Below are positions 1 through 8,548 of a stretch of DNA of 8,631 bases, in pieces. Numbering within the stretch: the stretch's first letter is position 1; each line of letters starts with the position of its first letter. The DNA is taken from assembly GCA_044229145.1 (NCBI GenBank), contig JBGATO010000123.1, positions 1 through 8,631 of the forward strand, written 5' to 3'. A program made the translations under genes and the position numbers. The stretch is from Candidatus Eiseniibacteriota bacterium. GTDB taxonomy: Bacteria > Eisenbacteria > RBG-16-71-46 > CAZEPH01. Below the pieces are notes generated by a model. That model saw nothing but the letters and a program-made list of their open reading frames with translations. It did not search any database and had not been told where the DNA came from.

Positions 1-2669
1 TAGACGCCGTCGGCGTGGCACGCCAGACACGCCGCCGTGACGTGCGCGCCGGTCAGCGGGAACTGCGACGCGTCGTGATCGAAGGTCGAATTCGACCACG
101 TCGTCGTCGTGTGACAGGTCTCGCAGAGGGACGACGGGTAGCCGCCGCTGACGTGGTTCGGTGCCGAGGTGAAGTCGGCCATGTGACAGGCGTCGCACGC
201 CGTCGGCTTGCCGTTGTAGACCTTGTCAGCGTGACAGGCCTGGCAGTCGGCGCTGACGTGCGCGCCGGTGAGCACGAAGTCGGTGCGCGTGTGGTCGAAC
301 GGCGCGCCATCCCACGAGGATGTCGTGTGGCAGGAGGCGCACTCGGCCGGCGGCATCGCGGTGGCCGTGTGCGGCGGATCGGCTGCACCGTCGTAGTCGG
401 CCTGGTGGCACGACTGGCACGCGGTCGATTTCCCGTCGAACACGTTGTCGGCGTGGCACGCCATACAGTCGGCGGCGACGTGCGCGCCGGTGAGCGGGAA
501 TTGGGTCGTGTTGTGGTCGAACGTCGCGCCGGACCACGTCGTCGTCGTGTGACACGAGGCGCACGCGTTCGACCCGTAACCGGCGGCGCGGTGATCCGGC
601 GTCGCGCGGTCGTAGTCGTCCATGTGGCAGGCGTCGCAGGCGGTCGGTTTGCCTGCGTAGACGCCGTCGGCGTGGCACGCCAGACACGCCGCCGTGACGT
701 GGGCGCCGGTGAGCGCAAAGCCCGTCGACGCGTGATCGAACGGGGCGCGCGACCACGTCGTCGTGGTGTGGCAGGTGGCGCACTGCGCGGCGACGAAGCC
801 GGCCGCCGCGTGATCCGGCGTGGCACGCGAGTAGTCGTCCGCGTGGCAGGACTCGCACGCCGCCGGCTTGCCGGCGTAGACCTTGTCGGCGTGACACGCC
901 TGGCAGTCGGCGCTGACGTGCGCGCCGGTGAGCGCGAAGTCGGTGCGCGTGTGGTCGAACGGCGCGCCATCCCAGGACGAAGTCGTGTGGCACGCCGCGC
1001 ACTCGGCCGGCGGCATCGCGGTCGCCGTGTGCGGTGGATCGGTCGCGCCGTCGTAGTCGGCCTGGTGGCACGACTGGCACGCGGTGGATTTCCCGTCGAA
1101 GACGTTGTCCGCGTGACACGCGAGGCACGCGGCGTCGACGTGCCGCCCGGTGAGCGGGAACGAGGTCGTCGCGTGGTCGAAGTCGGCACCCAGCCACGTC
1201 GAGGTGGTGTGGCAGCCGGCGCACGCGTTGCTGGCGTAGCCCGCGGCGCGGTGATTCGGCGATGCGCGGTCGTAGTCGTCCATGTGGCAGGCGTCGCACG
1301 CGGACGACTTCCCCGCATAGACGCCATCGCCATGACACGCCGCGCACGCCACCGGCACATGCGCGCCGGTCAGCGGGAACGTGGTGCGCGCGTGATCGAA
1401 CGGCGCACCGGCCCAGCCCGCGGTCGTGTGGCACGCCGCGCACTCGGCAGGCGGCATCGCGGTCGCCGTGTGCGGCGGCGTCGCGCGTTGGTAATCCGCG
1501 GTGTGGCACGCCTGGCAGGCGCGATCGAGTCCGCGGTACACGCCGTCGCTGTGGCATGCGAGACACGCCGCGTCGGCATGCCGGCCGGTCAGCGGGAACG
1601 CGGTCCGCGTGTGGTCGAACGGCGCGCCCGCCCAGCCTGCGGTCGAGTGACAGGTGGCACACTTCTGCGGCGGCATGCCATCGGCCGTGTGCGGCGGCAC
1701 CGCGCGCGTGTAATCCGCGGCATGGCAGGCGTCGCAGGCCGTCGGCGTGCCAGCGTAGACGCCCGACGCGTGACATGCTTGGCACGCGGCCGCCGTGTGG
1801 CGACCGGTCAGCGGATACGCGGTCCGCGCGTGATCGAACGTCGCCCCGCTCCACTGCACCGTGGTGTGACAGGCGCCGCACTCCGCCGCCGGAAACGCCG
1901 TCGCGTCGTGCGGCGGGCGCGCGGCGGCCGTGTAGTCACTGTGGTGACAGGCGTCGCACGCCGTCGGCGTACCGGCGAATTGCCCGCCGGTGTGGCAAGC
2001 GCCGCACGCGGTTTCCGCGTGTGCCCCGGCGAGCGCGAAGCCGGTGCTCGCATGATCGAACGCCGCGTGCTCCCACGTCATCGTCGTATGACAGGTTTCG
2101 CACTGACGCGGATAGCCGCGCGTCACGTGATCGCGCGCGGTGGCGAACTGCTCGGCGTGACACGCATTGCACGCGGTCGCGGTGCCGACGAACTGCAGTT
2201 GCCCTTGCGCCGCCGGCGTGTGGCACATCTCGCAGTCCACCGCGCCGTGGCTGCCGGTGAGCGGGAATCGCGTCGCGGCGTGGGCACGCAACACTTGGCC
2301 CCGGTCGATGAAGCTCGTGGTGCCGTGGCATTGACCGCAGGCAGTGCCCATCTCGCCGCGATGGGGATCGTCATGACACGCCGCGCACGACGCCGGGGTC
2401 TGCGCGAAGGTGAGCGTGCGGTGACACGCCGTGCAGGCGGCCGACGCATGCGCGCCCTCGAGCGCGAATTTCGAGGACGCCGCGTGGTCGAAGCGCGTGC
2501 TGATGCGTGCCGGCTTCCAGCTGTCGGCGCGGTGGCACACTTCGCACTCGTCGCGCAGCGGACCGTGCGGATTGCCGGTGGCCGGCGCGTCGCCCGCGCG
2601 GGCCGCCGCCGCAACCAGCGCACACAACACGATCAGGCACGCGGCCACGCCGCGCAGGCGGTTACGCAT
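1..2669 (-). CDS. Giant repetitive multiheme cytochrome c (>=35 CxxCH), Sec-exported; truncated by the window edge
   Basis: Not in the ORF track, so translated by hand from ATG 2669: MRNRLRGVAACLIVLCALVAAAARA|GDAPATGNPHGPLRDECEVCHRADSWKPARISTRFDHAASSKFALEGAHASAACTACH... The frame stays open for 889 codons to position 3 (...FPLTGAHVTAACLACHADGV). I counted 35 CxxCH motifs. It has a Sec-type signal peptide (basic N-region, hydrophobic core, ARA cleavage site) and a GGAG RBS at 2678-2675. The last two bases read TA, and the paralogous repeat at 657-659 predicts TAC (Tyr) rather than a stop. Confidence 0.96.
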   Translation of the reverse strand, partial: MRNRLRGVAACLIVLCALVAAAARAGDAPATGNPHGPLRDECEVCHRADSWKPARISTRFDHAASSKFALEGAHASAACTACHRTLTFAQTPASCAACHDDPHRGEMGTACGQCHGTTSFIDRGQVLRAHAATRFPLTGSHGAVDCEMCHTPAAQGQLQFVGTATACNACHAEQFATARDHVTRGYPRQCETCHTTMTWEHAAFDHASTGFALAGAHAETACGACHTGGQFAGTPTACDACHHSDYTAAARPPHDATAFPAAECGACHTTVQWSGATFDHARTAYPLTGRHTAAACQACHASGVYAGTPTACDACHAADYTRAVPPHTADGMPPQKCATCHSTAGWAGAPFDHTRTAFPLTGRHADAACLACHSDGVYRGLDRACQACHTADYQRATPPHTATAMPPAECAACHTTAGWAGAPFDHARTTFPLTGAHVPVACAACHGDGVYAGKSSACDACHMDDYDRASPNHRAAGYASNACAGCHTTSTWLGADFDHATTSFPLTGRHVDAACLACHADNVFDGKSTACQSCHQADYDGATDPPHTATAMPPAECAACHTTSSWDGAPFDHTRTDFALTGAHVSADCQACHADKVYAGKPAACESCHADDYSRATPDHAAAGFVAAQCATCHTTTTWSRAPFDHASTGFALTGAHVTAACLACHADGVYAGKPTACDACHMDDYDRATPDHRAAGYGSNACASCHTTTTWSGATFDHNTTQFPLTGAHVAADCMACHADNVFDGKSTACQSCHQADYDGAADPPHTATAMPPAECASCHTTSSWDGAPFDHTRTDFVLTGAHVSADCQACHADKVYNGKPTACDACHMADFTSAPNHVSGGYPSSLCETCHTTTTWSNSTFDHDASQFPLTGAHVTAACLACHADGV
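75..2492 (-). repeat. Intragenic tandem repeat of 216-222 bp encoding a 72-74 aa tri-heme module (about 11 full copies visible)
   Basis: FDH codons have their lowest + coordinate at 75, 291, 513, 732, 951, 1173, 1392, 1611, 1830 and 2052 (spacings 216-222 bp), then an RAH variant near 2280 and FDH at 2484. Consensus: FDHxxTxFPLTGAHVxAxCxACHADxVYxGKPTACxxCHxxDYxxAxPxHxAxxxxxxxCAxCHTTxxWxGAP. Confidence 0.95.
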
Positions 2670-4416
2670 GGCAGCTCCGGCAGCTGGCCTGCACCGGCGT
2701 GTAGCGGACATACAGCCGTCCGTCGGCGTCGCGCACTTGTCCGTGACACCGCGCGCACGGCACCTGCTGGTGGCCGCCCTCGAGCGTGAACGACGTGTCG
2801 CGCGTGTGGTCGAACTTGGAGGCTGGCACGAACGAGGCGGTGTCGTGACACCGCTCGCACGCGCTGCCACCACGCCGCGCCGCGAACTGGCCCCGGTGGA
2901 CATCGGCGTGGCAGTCGGCGCAACCGTGCTTGGGCACTGCCAGGCCCATCACCGGCAGCGTGGCGCCGGCAAGCGTCTTGGGCGATGGCTTCGCCTTCAA
3001 CTCCTGATGGCACTCCTGACACGGCACCGCGCGATGCGCGCCCTCGAGCGGGAAGCCGCTGTCGGCATGCGCCTTCTCGTCGTAGGTCGAGGGCCGGAAC
3101 GTGTCGAAGCCGTGGCACGCCAGGCAGTCGTTCGCCCGCGCGCGCGCGCCGCCGGGGCGGAAACGGCCGGCGTGCGGATCGGCGTGGCACGCCACGCATG
3201 CCGCGTGTGCCGGACGCAAGTCGACGTGCGCGCTGCCGAGCGCCGCGTCGCGCTGGCGATGCGTGTGGCAGGCCGCGCATGCGGCAGCCGCGTGGCGCCC
3301 GCGCAACGGATACGCTGACGTCTGGTGCTGCGCCACCGTGTACGTCGAGGGCGCAAACGCGCGCACGTCGTGGCACGCCGCGCAGTCCACCGCCTTGCCC
3401 GCCAGCGTCGCCGTGCCATTGTGCGCGTCGCCATGACAGTCGGTGCAGCGGGCGAACGCCGGCTTCTGCGCGTTCGGCTTGCGCGGATCGTGGCACTTGT
3501 CGCAGGCGACCGCCGCGTGCGCGCCGCGCAACGGATACCGCGTCTTGTCGTGGTCGAAGGCACCCCGCGCGATCCGGCTGAACGAATCGGTGGTGTGACA
3601 CGACGCGCACGAACCGCCGAAGCGTCCGGCGTGCGGGTCCTTGTGGCAGGCATCGCAGTCGCCGTGCGGCAAGGGCGTCCAGCGCGGAATCGGCTGCCCC
3701 TTCGCATCGCGTCCGCGCGCCACCGCCGGCGTCGCGTGACAGGCCGCGCACGCGGTCTTCACGTGCGCGCCGGTCAATGGATAGTCGGTGCGCGCGTGAT
3801 CGAATCCGGCCGCGGGCTTCCACCGCGCTTGATCGTGGCACTTCAGACAGTCGTTGCCGAGTTGCGCCTTGTGCGGGTCTTCATGGCACGCGGTGCAGGA
3901 CGATTCGAGCCCGATCCATCCCGTCTTGGTCCGCTTCACTTTGCTCGCCGCGAGCGCGGGCGACTTCTGCAGCGGCCGTGTGTGACACTTCGTGCAGGCG
4001 AGCGACGCGTGCTTGCCTTCGAGCGCCCATCCGGCGCGACGGTGATCGAATTTCTCGGGCGCGCCACCGTCCCAGACGATCATCGCGAAGTCGCGCCCGC
4101 CGTGATCCTTGTGGCAGGCGGTGCAACTCTTGGACGCAACCGCGGGCGCGCCATGCAATCCCCGGCGATGTGTTCTCATCCACTGCACCTCGCCGTGACA
4201 CGCGAGGCATTGCGGATCGAGCCCCGCCGACCCCTTGGTCTTGGCGTGGCACTGGAAGCACTGGAGCGGACCTTCGAGCGAGCGGTGCGGCGCGGCCAAC
4301 GGGCCGGGCGACACCTGGGCCGCCGCGCGCGGACCGCCCGCGCACAGCGCGAGCACGGCGACGGCAACTGCCGTCCCCCAACGAACACCGGCGCACACGT
4401 CACGCAGGCCGCGCAC
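2662..4416 (-). CDS. Multiheme cytochrome c with 20 CxxCH motifs, Sec-exported
   Basis: The track ORF 2662..4590 has 20 CxxCH motifs (CFQCH to the terminal CRSCH) and the same FDH..[FY]PLxG[AR]H module. I moved the start to the in-frame GTG at 4416 (alternative GTG 4398) because a purine-rich GGAAAGGG/GAGG precedes it and a signal peptide follows (..WGTAVAVAVLALCAGGPRAAA|QVSPGPL). The exact start is uncertain. Confidence 0.95.
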   Translation of the reverse strand: MRGLRDVCAGVRWGTAVAVAVLALCAGGPRAAAQVSPGPLAAPHRSLEGPLQCFQCHAKTKGSAGLDPQCLACHGEVQWMRTHRRGLHGAPAVASKSCTACHKDHGGRDFAMIVWDGGAPEKFDHRRAGWALEGKHASLACTKCHTRPLQKSPALAASKVKRTKTGWIGLESSCTACHEDPHKAQLGNDCLKCHDQARWKPAAGFDHARTDYPLTGAHVKTACAACHATPAVARGRDAKGQPIPRWTPLPHGDCDACHKDPHAGRFGGSCASCHTTDSFSRIARGAFDHDKTRYPLRGAHAAVACDKCHDPRKPNAQKPAFARCTDCHGDAHNGTATLAGKAVDCAACHDVRAFAPSTYTVAQHQTSAYPLRGRHAAAACAACHTHRQRDAALGSAHVDLRPAHAACVACHADPHAGRFRPGGARARANDCLACHGFDTFRPSTYDEKAHADSGFPLEGAHRAVPCQECHQELKAKPSPKTLAGATLPVMGLAVPKHGCADCHADVHRGQFAARRGGSACERCHDTASFVPASKFDHTRDTSFTLEGGHQQVPCARCHGQVRDADGRLYVRYTPVQASCRSCHA

Positions 4417-4812
4417 GCGCCTCGGCCCTTTCCATGGGCGACGACACACCAGTGAGAGGACGACGCGCGCATTCCGCCGCGCGTCGTGAAGTAGTGCAAT
4501 GCATGTTGCAGGTCCCCAAGCATGCAGGAATCGGAGCGCGCCGGCGCCGACCGCGCGCGGTTGGGGATCCGCGCCGTGGCTCGCCTTCACCGCCTGCGTC
4601 GGGAGTCAACAGGCGGTCACGCGCACAGCCGAACGGTTATCGGCACACGGCCGACGGAGAGGGAGAGTCTTCGCGCGCGGGCCTCGCATGCCTGGCGGGA
4701 CGGGCACCGCGCGATGCCAGCCGTGCACAGAAGATGCCGCCGACTCTGCGGGAAATACCGGCGCACTGAGAAAGGGCCATTGGAGGTATCCCAGGCGCGC
4801 GCGAATTCCCAC

Positions 4813-4842
4813 TTGCACTGCCCATGCGAGCAGTTCTACAGT
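4813..4842 (+). promoter_or_regulatory. Putative sigma70-type promoter for the 4881 gene
   Basis: TTGCAC (4813-4818), 18 nt spacer, TACAGT (4837-4842), in a locally lower-GC patch; GGAG RBS at 4871-4874 upstream of ATG 4881. Confidence 0.45.
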
Positions 4843-4880
4843 TGACGCATCCTCCCACCCTTTCACGATCGGAGACCTCG

Positions 4881-5645
4881 ATGCCCGCCTTGCAGCACGC
4901 TGACTTCTGCGATCGGCTCGCCCCGCTCGTCCACCGCATGGCCGATGTCCTCGAGGGCGCCGACCTCTCCGCCCCGGTCCCCACCTGCGGCGACGACTGG
5001 ACGCTGTACAGCCTCGCGGAACACCTCGGCTTGATCCACCGCTGGGCGGAACGCCTGGTGCGCGATCTCTCGCCCGAACGCATCGACCGCGCCGCGCTGG
5101 GCGTGACCGTCCCGGACGCCGCCGGCATGGCGGCGTGGATGCGCGCCGGCGCCGCTCCACTGGTCGCCGCATTCCGGGCGACGAATCCGGACGCGCCGAT
5201 GTGGGCGTGGGGCGCCGACCAGCACGCGCGCTTCTGGTCGCGCCGCCAGGTCCACGAAACCGCGGTGCATCTGCACGACGCGGAACTCGCCGCGGGCGTC
5301 GCGGTGTCGCCCATCGAGCCCGCAGTCGCGGACGATGGTGTGGACGAATTCCTCGTCAACATGCCGTGTGCGGCGCGCTGGGCGCCGCGCATCGCCGAAT
5401 TGCGCGGCCACGGCGAGGAGATCGCCTTGCACGCCACCGACACAGGCAGCGAGTGGACGCTGACGCTGACGTCGGAGGGTCTCACGTGGTCGCGCGCAGT
5501 ATCGGCCGCTCCCGTGGTTCGCGCGGCCGCCACGGCCGAAACGCTGTACCTGCTGCTCTGGCAGCGCCGCGGCCTCGAGCACTGCGCGGTCGAGGGCTCG
5601 CCTGGCGCACTCGCCACCGTGCTTGCGGCGGTCGAGGACTTCTAA
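4881..5645 (+). CDS. Maleylpyruvate isomerase family (MDMPI-like, DinB superfamily) metal-dependent enzyme
   Basis: 254 aa from ATG 4881 with a GGAG RBS. The motifs APVPTCGDDWTLYSLAEHLGLIHRWA and FWSRRQVHETAVHLHDA match the MDMPI N-terminal pattern (His...Glu-x3-His metal triad). The C-terminal part (ADDGVDEFL...LHATDTGSEW...LYLLLWQR) resembles the MDMPI C-terminal domain. Confidence 0.88.
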   Translation: MPALQHADFCDRLAPLVHRMADVLEGADLSAPVPTCGDDWTLYSLAEHLGLIHRWAERLVRDLSPERIDRAALGVTVPDAAGMAAWMRAGAAPLVAAFRATNPDAPMWAWGADQHARFWSRRQVHETAVHLHDAELAAGVAVSPIEPAVADDGVDEFLVNMPCAARWAPRIAELRGHGEEIALHATDTGSEWTLTLTSEGLTWSRAVSAAPVVRAAATAETLYLLLWQRRGLEHCAVEGSPGALATVLAAVEDF

Positions 5646-5673
5646 CCGCGTCGCCCAGCATCACGACACGCGC

Positions 5674-5707
5674 GACGGCGGAGGCGCCTCGAGGCCCCTC
5701 CGCCGTC
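5674..5707. terminator. GC-rich hairpin between convergent genes, probable bidirectional terminator or 3' stabiliser
   Basis: GACGGCGGAGG (5674-5684) pairs perfectly with CCTCCGCCGTC (5697-5707) around the palindromic core GCCTCGAGGC. It lies between the stops at 5645 and 5726. There is no strong U-tract. Confidence 0.65.
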
Positions 5708-5725
5708 CGCGCTTCCGCGAGCTGT

Positions 5726-6262
5726 TCAGCGAATCTGCCGGTCCGTCGGCATCGGCACCGAGACCCGCTCCCACTCGCGTTCCAGTCCCGACCGCTCACC
5801 CTTCTCGACGAAGGCGCGCAGGTGGCGGTTGAACAGTTCGGTCCAGCCGCGGGTGTAGACCGCTTCGAGGCGCGGCGTGAACAACCCCATCGCGTGGTGC
5901 GCCAGATGCAGCTGCGTTCCCTTCGGCGTGTCGGTCAATTCGAGGTGTACGCGCCCTTCCACCGGGCCGCGAATCCCCATTGCCCCGCGGAGGTCCACCG
6001 ACACGTTCCGCTCGAAGCCGGTGATGGTCGCCCACATCGCCCCTTCGCCCTCGCCCCAGTCTTCGTAGAGCCGGCCGCCGAGGCGGGTTTCGAGCACCAC
6101 GGTGCGCGCCCGCGATGGATTGCGCAGGTACGGCGCGCCCCACCACGCACCGATCGAGCCCGTCAGCGCGCGAAACACCTGCGCCCGCGGCGCGTCGATG
6201 AAAAAGTCCAATTCGATGCAGAGCGACTGCATCTCGCGAATGTTGCCCATCTCGAACGTCAT
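5726..6262 (-). CDS. SRPBCC/START-fold (AHSA1-like) domain protein
   Basis: 178 aa from ATG 6262 with an AAGGAG RBS (6274-6269). The pattern IDAPRAQVFRALT...GAWW...LETRLGGRLYE...GTQLHLAH...YTRGWTELF..HLRAFVE is typical of the AHSA1/SRPBCC family. Confidence 0.85.
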   Translation of the reverse strand: MTFEMGNIREMQSLCIELDFFIDAPRAQVFRALTGSIGAWWGAPYLRNPSRARTVVLETRLGGRLYEDWGEGEGAMWATITGFERNVSVDLRGAMGIRGPVEGRVHLELTDTPKGTQLHLAHHAMGLFTPRLEAVYTRGWTELFNRHLRAFVEKGERSGLEREWERVSVPMPTDRQIR

Positions 6263-6637
6263 GATCGTCTCCTTGTCGCGGGCGATGCGACGACTCACCC
6301 GCGTGCTGGCCAGCATCAGCGCGATCATCCCGCCGCGGCAGGCCCGCCGCTATGCGACGTGAGGGAAGCGTGGTCGTGCAACTTCCGAGGGACGCGGACC
6401 GGTCCGCTCGCAGCACTGCGACCGAGGGTGCGGCGGTCCTTCGCCTTCCAACCCGTGGACAACCCGCGCCCGTCGTCCCACGGTGGCGGGGTCTCCGTGT
6501 GCCGGCACGTCCTCCACGGCCAGGCACCAGACGGCGGACGGCGGCCACGCGAGCGTGCGGCTCGTGCCGCTCGGCGCGCTCCGCGACGTCGTACGTGTTG
6601 CGCCGTGGCACTCGAGCGGCACGAAGCGAGTCGAGCC

Positions 6638-7486: not shown

Positions 7487-7515
7487 TTGACGAGCCTGCC
7501 ACGGCAGAGTAGCCT
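7487..7515 (+). promoter_or_regulatory. Putative sigma70-type promoter for the 7625 gene
   Basis: TTGACG (7487-7492), 17 nt spacer, TAGCCT (7510-7515), immediately after the hairpin that closes the upstream gene. Confidence 0.6.
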
Positions 7516-7624
7516 TTCGTCGACTTACCGCATCAAGGAAGACCTCTCGGGGATCCAGCCCCATCCTTCCTCTGCACCGTTGTCTGGTTCACCTGGCATC
7601 TTCGCGCCGTTTAGGAGGATCCCC

Positions 7625-8548
7625 ATGCAGTCTCGCTCCAAGGCCGCCGCCTTGTTGCTCTTGCTTCCTGCGCTATTCCTGGCCCGGCCGGCCCGCGCGC
7701 AGCTCACCTATGACCCGGTGTCCATCAGCGTGACGTCGCTCGGACACGGCAAGGTGGCGCTTTCCGTCACCGCGGGGCAGAGCGGCACGCCGAACGGATT
7801 CGCGCTCTGGTGGATGACCTCCGCCCAGTTCGCCTCGCTTGGCTACCAGTGGCCCGACAACTTGGTGACCGGCGAAGGCTGGGCCAAGTTCACCGGCATC
7901 CCGACGCTGAACGTGTTCGCTGGCGAGCCCGGCACCTTCGTCCTCGGCCCGAACCAAACGATCACCGTCGAAATCGGCGACCTCGCCGATGAAACCGGCC
8001 GCACCTCGAACATCGTGTCCGAGCTCGACTACGACGAGTCGTACGTGTTCTGTGCGTACGCGCGCGGCGACCAGACCATCGGCAACAGCCCGCTCTCGAC
8101 TACCGAAACCGGCGTGACGACCAACAGCGTGAACTGCACCTACACGGTCGGCTACTGGAAGAACCACACGTCGGCGTGGCACGTCTCGAGCCTCACGCTC
8201 GGCACCGTCAGCTACAGCGCGAGCCAGTTGCTGTCGATCCTCAACAAGCCGGTGGCCGGGAACGGCCTCATCTCGCTGTCGCACCAGTTGATCGCGACGA
8301 AGTTGAACCTCGCCAACGGCGCGGACCCGACGGCCGCCCTCCCGACGGTCAATGCCGCGGACGCCATGATCGGCAGCTTGATCGTGCCGCCGGTCGGCAG
8401 CGGCTACCTGTCGCCGAGCTCGACCTCGGGCTACACGCAGATCCTCGACAACTTCAACAACGGCGTCATCGGCCCGGGCCACTGCGGCAGCGTGACACCG
8501 GTGTCCCCGTCGACGTGGGGCGGCCTGAAGGCGCTCTACTCGCGATAG
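7625..8548 (+). CDS. Secreted two-domain protein (beta-rich N-domain plus CTxTxGYWKNH domain) with a TWGxxK C-terminal tail
   Basis: A perfect AGGAGG RBS (7613-7618) precedes ATG 7625 (307 aa). Signal peptide MQSRSKAAALLLLLPALFLARPARA|Q; Ser/Thr/Gly/Asn-rich composition typical of extracellular proteins; ends VTPVSPSTWGGLKALYSR*. Confidence 0.9.
   Translation: MQSRSKAAALLLLLPALFLARPARAQLTYDPVSISVTSLGHGKVALSVTAGQSGTPNGFALWWMTSAQFASLGYQWPDNLVTGEGWAKFTGIPTLNVFAGEPGTFVLGPNQTITVEIGDLADETGRTSNIVSELDYDESYVFCAYARGDQTIGNSPLSTTETGVTTNSVNCTYTVGYWKNHTSAWHVSSLTLGTVSYSASQLLSILNKPVAGNGLISLSHQLIATKLNLANGADPTAALPTVNAADAMIGSLIVPPVGSGYLSPSSTSGYTQILDNFNNGVIGPGHCGSVTPVSPSTWGGLKALYSR

Follow-up and report, generated by a model that had tools for sequence, protein, structure and literature searches.

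The stretch of DNA considered here, called the window in what follows, is an entire contig of 8631 bases (C57, G+C about 70%) from a Candidatus Eiseniibacteriota bacterium (assembly GCA_044229145.1, contig JBGATO010000123.1), and on the minus strand of its first 2,669 bases it carries the beginning of a giant gene encoding a multihaem cytochrome. The original prediction, made from the letters alone, had pointed at this place to an unlisted frame with a signal peptide and 35 CxxCH motifs in 889 codons, still open at the window edge. Translation from the ATG at 2669 bears out this description and, since the window is the whole contig, the gene is truncated. The frame as a whole (3..2903, minus strand, 3' end open) appears once a listing of open reading frames (ORFs) allows open ends; its absence from the ORF track is most likely explained by the default omission of run-off ORFs. 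The features recognised in the giant gene are the following:

3..2669, minus strand: giant multihaem cytochrome, first 889 codons with 35 CxxCH (translation; Pfam PF14522, E 1.8e-46), still open at the contig end
2595..2669, minus strand: signal peptide, residues 1-25, with an AxA site between ARA and GD (by eye from the translation; the orthologs start alike)
2061..2594, minus strand: conserved 7-haem head, residues 26-203 (haem spacing matches the orthologs)
3..2060, minus strand: nine full three-haem modules and the first haem of a tenth, in a three-module super-repeat (FDH spacing, alignment and repeat search)

The 889 codons include 73 His, 72 Cys and 12 Met, and none of the variant haem-binding motifs CX3CH, CX4CH and CXXCK is found among them. 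Shuffling the residues of the frame yields on average 0.47 CxxCH, with a maximum of 4 (n = 2000), while shuffling the nucleotides yields 0.012; the remaining five frames of positions 1-2669 contain 0 such motifs. The G+C content at third codon positions of the giant frame is 0.87. The Met encoded at 2669 is followed by MRNRLRGVAACLIVLCALVAAAARA and then by GD, which reads by eye as a Sec-type signal, and no classical lipobox was seen in this signal peptide by the same inspection. A longer start, from the ATG at 2903, was discarded, since the resulting overlap with the upstream gene would amount to about 240 nt and the signal peptide would be preceded by 78 residues.

The product had also been described as consisting almost wholly of one module of 72-74 residues. 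This is correct from residue 204 onwards, where FDH anchors start and recur every 72-74 residues, but residues 26-203 form a separate head with seven haems. The spacing of the head haems (37/16/16/35/21/23) is the same in the orthologs, and over 174 residues the head is 55% identical to that of the ortholog at locus L024. On the DNA of the array, Tandem Repeats Finder reports a period of 219 nt with 7.4 copies and 69-70% matches. Each module follows the layout FDH..GxH..CxxCH..CxxCH..PxH..CxxCH, and the three CxxCH and three additional conserved His proposed for the regular modules were recovered in an alignment of 87 four-module stretches from the window gene, its likely continuation on contig C76 (described below) and 16 relatives. 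In this alignment no CxxCH motif varies, nor does the His of GxH or of PxH in any of the four modules; that of FDH is likewise invariant in three of them and more than 90% conserved in the first. The module consensus contains no Met. Six His per three haems would fit bis-His ligation of all three haems, which is the ligation present in the free c7 cytochromes. From a compositional perspective, the array is rich in Thr/Ser/Ala/Gly.

The affiliation of the module to the c7 type, likewise put forward in the original prediction, is supported by Pfam, where Cytochrome_C7 (PF14522) is matched in 9 stretches with 156.2 bits against a cut-off of 24.8, and by a module profile that, among PDB sequences, finds the 16-haem HmcA (1z1n, E 1.4e-7) and GSU1996 (3ov0, E 5.6e-5). 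A phmmer search of the PDB sequences with the whole protein returned 0 matches, and no close identity to any characterised protein was found in this way. The wider cytochrome family is large: 6144 of 7999 candidates score at E<=1e-10 (lengths of 488-1556 were scored), and the best 120 candidates are 34-58% identical, those bearing a name being annotated as hypothetical proteins or multihaem cytochromes.

A tblastn search of the genome with the module returned, besides the window, only contigs C76 and C148, plus a weak match on C133. The start of C76 and the end of the window share an exact overlap of 12 nt in the same module phase, and their join rebuilds the module type that the order of the super-repeat calls for. 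C76 adds 563 residues and 23 CxxCH, corresponding to the remainder of the split module, six further modules and a non-repeat tail with three haems, which contains W-F-P-I-Y-S-G-x-H as a motif and is closed by a stop codon. Because the genome contains a single head without a tail and a single tail without a head, which share the module phase, C57 and C76 are likely the two ends of one gene, encoding as a minimum 7 + 3x16 + 3 = 58 haems on about 1448 residues. The downstream contig, which had been recommended as the place to look for the total haem count and for a C-terminal end, would in this way give at least 58 haems and a 3-haem C-terminal tail.

It is very improbable that the array, or its length, results from the mis-assembly of a shorter repeated gene. 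Such an origin would agree with the fact that the contig ends within the repeat, and with the state of the Logan contigs of the two best sequencing runs, which are fragmented there and in which some joints skip repeat units (over positions 1-3000 of the window the array pieces measure 70-1326 bases and none extends past base 1; the two runs are one sample, perhaps the source, and are not independent). It is contradicted by the sequence of the repeats, since adjacent ones are about 70% identical in DNA and most 31-mers from the array occur only once in the assembly, by the 889 open codons with perfect haem spacing, and by the orthologs of 43-63 haems, which sit inside contigs of 13 kb-4.2 Mb. 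Moreover, the sequencing depth points to more copies of the repeat, not fewer.

On either side of the giant gene lie genes that bear on its function:

2662..4590, minus strand: upstream cytochrome of 642 codons with 20 haems (20 CxxCH; Pfam c7/c3 matches)
C76 (L001) 1690-3276, after the giant gene: outer-membrane barrel of 529 residues (signal peptide; ends GLSYRF)

The upstream cytochrome gene, with its TAA, and the giant gene, with its ATG, share 8 nt (ATGCGTAA), and the latter is translationally coupled to the former. The start of the upstream cytochrome is uncertain, 4590 being the farthest GTG, and the mature end is likely to begin at QVSPGPL. A beta-barrel partner, which the original prediction had proposed to look for next door, is present on C76 and conserved; as a neighbour of the window gene, this barrel depends on the inferred join between C57 and C76. 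Neither Pfam nor NCBIfam holds a family for it at E 0.01. An AlphaFold2 model based on 23 orthologs (predicted local distance difference test, pLDDT, 79) comprises 22 strands at residues 131-528, preceded by a disordered linker and, at the N-terminus, a small beta domain. With this model, Foldseek retrieves only generic outer-membrane barrels, while VIA-align places at the top the 22-strand TonB-dependent barrels (BtuB with Z 15.1, 327 aligned residues and a root-mean-square deviation, rmsd, of 3.9) and ranks MtrB (6r2q_B) 39th, with Z 12.0, rmsd 5.8 and 342 aligned residues. A profile of the 23 members reaches 2662 cluster representatives at E<=0.001, and 719 at E<=1e-30, among 1.84 billion proteins. 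Residues 23-127 of the barrel protein (L001 1756-2070) include a conserved beta domain in which a single Cys is nearly invariant (RVTYLxGxSVYVDAG...SSHRASCDT), and the disordered linker comes after it; for this N-terminal domain Pfam offers no more than faint matches to FlgT_C and DUF5666.

Convergent to the barrel gene, on the minus strand of C76 (L001) at 3357-5312, lies a gene for a 652-residue NHL/SGL beta-propeller with a type IX sorting tail; it was considered as a part of the system and set aside, as no counterpart was found among the neighbour ORFs of 35 related loci. In the rest of the window, three frames are apparently unrelated to the cassette: a DinB/MDMPI_N-type protein at 4824-5642 on the plus strand (E 9e-16), an SRPBCC/AHSA1-type protein at 5729-6328 on the minus strand (E 6e-6) and a 353-residue frame of no family at 7487-8545 on the plus strand. 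In this GC-rich window long frames overlap on opposite strands (for example 4637-5617 on the minus strand and 4824-5645 on the plus strand), and gene calls need care.

The barrel finds a match in 74 of the 206 genomes of the phylum to which the window belongs, and directly upstream of it, on the same strand, a haem-rich frame is present in 18 of the 19 best loci, the nineteenth being cut by the contig end. In thirteen wider loci the order is that of a 20-haem cytochrome (23 haems in one of them), a cytochrome built of head, modules and tail, and the barrel; the middle cytochrome has 13, 16, 19, 23, 28, 61 or 63 haems, and in one of these loci the second cytochrome is not seen as a single frame. 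A scan with the barrel alignment, restricted to one genome per species, gave 173 relatives, 80 of which were kept. The loci retained are titled mostly as Candidatus Eisenbacteria, then as Gemmatimonadota or Gemmatimonadales and then as Acidobacteriota, with one Polarisedimenticolia and one Anaerolineales; no proteobacterial title occurs among the 80 listed. The trio is conserved across three phylum labels.

In 44 of these 80 loci a complete cytochrome, bearing the spacing signatures of head and tail, is present, and in all 44 the number of haems is 10+3n, from 13 to 61 (13 haems in 6 loci, 16 in 11, 19 in 10, 22 in 3, 25 in 2, 28 in 3, 31 in 1, 34 in 1, 37 in 2, 43 in 1, 49 in 2, 52 in 1 and 61 in 1). 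The other 36 loci, either cut by contig ends or off this signature (e.g., 17, 18, 24, 30, 59 or 62 haems), were left out of the count. Among the complete cases the middle cytochrome varies only in the number of modules, in agreement with the earlier proposal that its length is set by the number of repeats. As for the evolution of the modules, when 136 single modules from 16 proteins are compared, the nearest relative of 110 is another module of the same protein, so that the arrays have grown, or have been homogenised, separately in each lineage; within the genome of the window two modules are 97% identical.

Thirty-five of the loci are long, with at least 19 kb, and allow a wider view of the gene order. 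A 20- or 23-haem ortholog occupies the upstream position in 34 of them, and two further genes are found upstream on the same strand, encoding a membrane protein (34 of 35) and a protein with 4Fe-4S and pyridine-nucleotide-disulfide-oxidoreductase domains, hereafter the iron-sulphur (FeS) flavoprotein (33 of 35). The membrane protein carries two WX3HX13H motifs in 33 of the 35 loci, and one of its orthologs scores 27.4 bits against cytochrome b561, below the cut-off of 30.1. In the genome of the window, the genes for the membrane protein and the FeS flavoprotein are found only on another contig, in the following cassette:

C148 (L002) 1079-6345: FeS flavoprotein of 509 residues, membrane protein of 322 residues, 16-haem cytochrome (7+6+3) and barrel paralog

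The 16-haem cytochrome belongs to the same family as the giant one, with head, modules and tail. The barrel paralog is 29% identical to the barrel of C76 (E 6e-15), while the membrane protein shows WX3HX13H twice (residues 120 and 290) and SGXXG at residue 160; five membrane helices were not confirmed in the latter by a crude hydropathy scan, which gave 3 segments. The genome contains, in other words, one cassette without the inner module, that of the window, and one without the 20-haem protein, that of C148. Elsewhere in the genome, C133 harbours at about 11800-23400 an island of multihaem cytochromes with frames of 18, 13, 10, 9 and 5 CxxCH, and in total 16 frames with at least 4 CxxCH account for 198 motifs.

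The relationship between cytochrome and barrel was modelled on the ortholog pair of L024 (genome G127), i.e., the barrel and its own 13-haem cytochrome, without haems and with self-made alignments. The complex obtained an ipSAE of 0.66 (0.66, 0.67 and 0.59 in the runs), passing a mark that is reached by 116 of 157 solved complexes and by 2 of 215 mismatched pairs, whereas the best of 3 controls scored 0.00; the runs agree in at least 57% of the contacts, and the pLDDT of the partner is at least 72. The confident contacts involve alternate residues of many strands within barrel residues 118-506 and residues 37-176 of the cytochrome, which comprise haems 2-7. The head of the ortholog is predicted to lie in the barrel lumen, like MtrA in MtrB. 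The corresponding part of the window gene covers residues ~67-205 (~2055-2471), this mapping being approximate. An attempt to deduce the orientation of the cytochrome from 25 listed contact pairs was abandoned, because the local strand directions gave conflicting signs.

These results also bear on whether the giant cytochrome is a free periplasmic c7 polymer of the GSU1996 type, not bound to the barrel, with the neighbourhood reflecting only shared regulation. Membership in the Pfam c7 family, the weak profile similarity to 3ov0 and a sequence with no membrane anchor would all be expected of such a protein. We consider it improbable nonetheless: in the great majority of the best loci the barrel is directly preceded by the cytochrome, a conserved head and a conserved tail frame the variable array, the complex model passes while every control stays at 0.00, and all six His of the module are invariant, as opposed to one His-Met haem per domain in GSU1996.

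A better account of the data is that the giant gene encodes the secreted outer cytochrome of a PCC3-type porin-cytochrome conduit, to which we assign a somewhat better than even chance. In a conduit of this kind the head, with its haems 2-7, would sit in the lumen of the barrel as a membrane-crossing wire, in the way MtrA does in MtrB; the 20- or 23-haem protein, whose length is constant, would bridge the periplasm; and the variable array with its tail would emerge at the opposite face of the barrel, pointing most likely away from the cell. If it were as extended as GSU1996 (~1 nm per haem), its reach would be roughly 50 nm. All the haems would be bis-His electron-transfer haems, and electrons would presumably enter through the membrane protein, as one of a two-haem-b type, and the FeS flavoprotein. 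A more far-reaching version, which we put forward only tentatively, is that a single chain serves both as the wire through the membrane and as a free-standing nanowire outside the cell. The constant 7-haem head would be locked in the 22-strand barrel, and the outward reach, from ~6 to >50 nm, would depend on how often (1 to 17+ times) each lineage has independently copied the module.

Several observations weigh against the assignment to an outer conduit. As far as the gene itself is concerned, no read or contig spans the join between C57 and C76, and over positions 1-1400 of the window the depth of repeat words is 1.3-2.7 times that of the unique head, as compared with an assembled 31-mer multiplicity of 1.0-1.5. 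Owing to this excess the array is not fully resolved and 58 haems is a lower bound; there is a weak hint that copies of the array are missing from the assembly and that the true array has perhaps more than 16 modules. No RNA datasets are present among the sequencing runs listed for the sequence. With regard to the fold, the NCBIfam model TIGR04257 (nanowire_3heme) scores 38.6 bits on the window part and 32.3 on the C76 part, both below the cut-off of 40, and a haem-less model of four modules is only moderately confident (pLDDT 72, predicted template-modelling score 0.38), with 0 matches in Foldseek and none at Z>=2 in the PDB in a wide VIA-align search; this fold search is uninformative because the model lacks haems and the protein has little secondary structure. 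The complex, for its part, was modelled without haems, from self-made alignments and on an ortholog whose head is 55% and whose barrel is 46% identical; as MtrAB has already been solved, the score may partly reflect memory; and nothing in the model places the array on one side of the membrane or the other. The membrane protein and the FeS flavoprotein are absent from the cassette and the contig of the window. Furthermore, PCC3 is itself a genome prediction, with no experimental test mentioned in the available portions of PMC5566968 and PMC9900912. Finally, the signal peptide of the cytochrome is of the ordinary, cleavable sort, and neither a lipobox nor a type IX sorting tail is present, so that no known route would export a folded array of 50 haems. 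In favour of the conduit, the genome encodes cytochrome c assembly proteins; it also encodes three secretins, but no export route can be assigned.

The last points, together with the missing orientation of the complex, speak in favour of a different arrangement, in which the head is in the barrel and only its first haem is exposed, as a tip at the surface, while the C-terminal array remains inside, as a periplasmic store of charge that also collects electrons. In this arrangement only ~36 N-terminal residues would cross the membrane, so that a large haem protein would not have to be exported in the folded state, and an ordinary signal peptide with no surface-sorting tag would suffice. A precedent is offered by the c7 polymers of the GSU1996 type, described in the available text of PMC10138318 as periplasmic and proposed as capacitors. 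What makes a periplasmic array rather unlikely is its length, which ranges between 6 and 54 haems when the head is left out, while the width of the periplasm is roughly constant. The 20- or 23-haem partner of constant size already suits a periplasm-spanning role. In addition, the lineage-specific expansion and the Thr/Ser/Ala/Gly-rich composition match those of the predicted extracellular PCC3 cytochromes, as far as these are described in the consulted part of PMC5566968.

As the outer cytochrome of a PCC3-type conduit, the giant gene product would belong to a kind that had been predicted in 2017, and would be a very long representative of it. What is added here is the build of a fixed head, 3n modules and a tail with its series from 13 to 61 haems, the lineage-specific expansion of the modules, the model of the head in the barrel, and the splitting of the system over two loci in one genome. 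Should the array prove external, these proteins would be wires of a single chain, tens of nanometres in length, with the number of repeats encoding that length. The filaments of OmcS, OmcE and OmcZ differ from such a wire, being polymerised. The natural series of 13, 16, 19 and up to 61 haems on a constant head and tail would constitute a test set for how rate and reach depend on wire length. Again if the array is external, the predicted extracellular electron exchange would extend to uncultured members of the Eisenbacteria, Gemmatimonadota and Acidobacteria that live in sludge, soil and groundwater. The barrel, moreover, belongs to a large family that has neither a Pfam nor an NCBIfam model.

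Among the known systems, the closest in layout is PCC3, defined by He et al. in 2017 from the genomes of iron oxidisers and other Proteobacteria; according to the available text of PMC5566968, it consists of a porin, an 'extracellular' cytochrome (median of 34 haem sites; 63 and 85 also occur), a 'periplasmic' one (median of 21) and a membrane protein. For its cytochromes the same text notes low-complexity repeats rich in Thr/Ser/Ala/Gly and proposes wires, and for the inner-membrane protein of PCC3 and PCC4 it gives a size of ~300 residues, an SGXXG and two WX3HX13H motifs. In a survey of Gallionellaceae, the portion of PMC9900912 consulted gives 10-35 and 21-27 haems for the two cytochromes, reports models that are long and mostly linear, and considers both a capacitor and an extended reach. 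The cassette described here resembles PCC3 in combining a barrel with a large repeat-rich cytochrome (35 + 23 haems) and with one of ~21 haems (20 here), and in the membrane protein with two WX3HX13H motifs of its relatives and of C148, the C148 copy also having SGXXG; the assignment is based on layout and motifs. It differs from PCC3 in that the membrane protein with SGXXG and two WX3HX13H is not part of the window's own cassette, in the reversed order of the genes, in the FeS flavoprotein that accompanies the membrane protein, and in its occurrence in genomes labelled as Eisenbacteria, Gemmatimonadota and Acidobacteriota instead of Proteobacteria. The strict build of head, 3n modules and tail and the head-in-barrel model are likewise not described in the accessible part of that paper. 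Among the papers listed by the literature searches, none names this cassette in Eisenbacteria or Gemmatimonadota, the 10 of 17 PCC3 papers listed deal with Proteobacteria or touch on PCC3 only briefly, and PMC11475568, in the text available, names none of these phyla. Four clusters in a preprint on peat (10.64898/2026.05.27.727921), with cytochromes of 8-13 haems, were compared as well and, from the part of the preprint consulted, are different systems.

With GSU1996 (3ov0), and with GSU0592 and GSU2210, of Geobacter sulfurreducens the giant cytochrome shares the tandem arrangement of three-haem c7-type domains on one chain. GSU1996 is presented in the title of a cited paper as an 'extended 12 nm protein' with 12 haems. 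The Geobacter polymers have 12 or 27 haems, in contrast to at least 58 here; the available text of PMC10138318 reports one His-Met haem per domain of GSU1996, whereas six His are (nearly) invariant in each module here, and it places the protein in the periplasm and mentions no barrel partner. The similarity to MtrCAB of Shewanella (6r2q) lies in a multihaem cytochrome that is predicted to be held, as an insulated wire, inside an outer-membrane barrel. However, the barrel has no Pfam or NCBIfam match to MtrB/PioB and, with ~22 strands, is nearer to the TonB-dependent barrels (Z 15.1) than to MtrB (Z 12.0), and the cytochrome scores 32.7 bits against the DmsE/MtrA family TIGR03508, whose cut-off is 192.2. 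Unlike in MtrCAB, a single chain would here do the jobs of both MtrA and MtrC.

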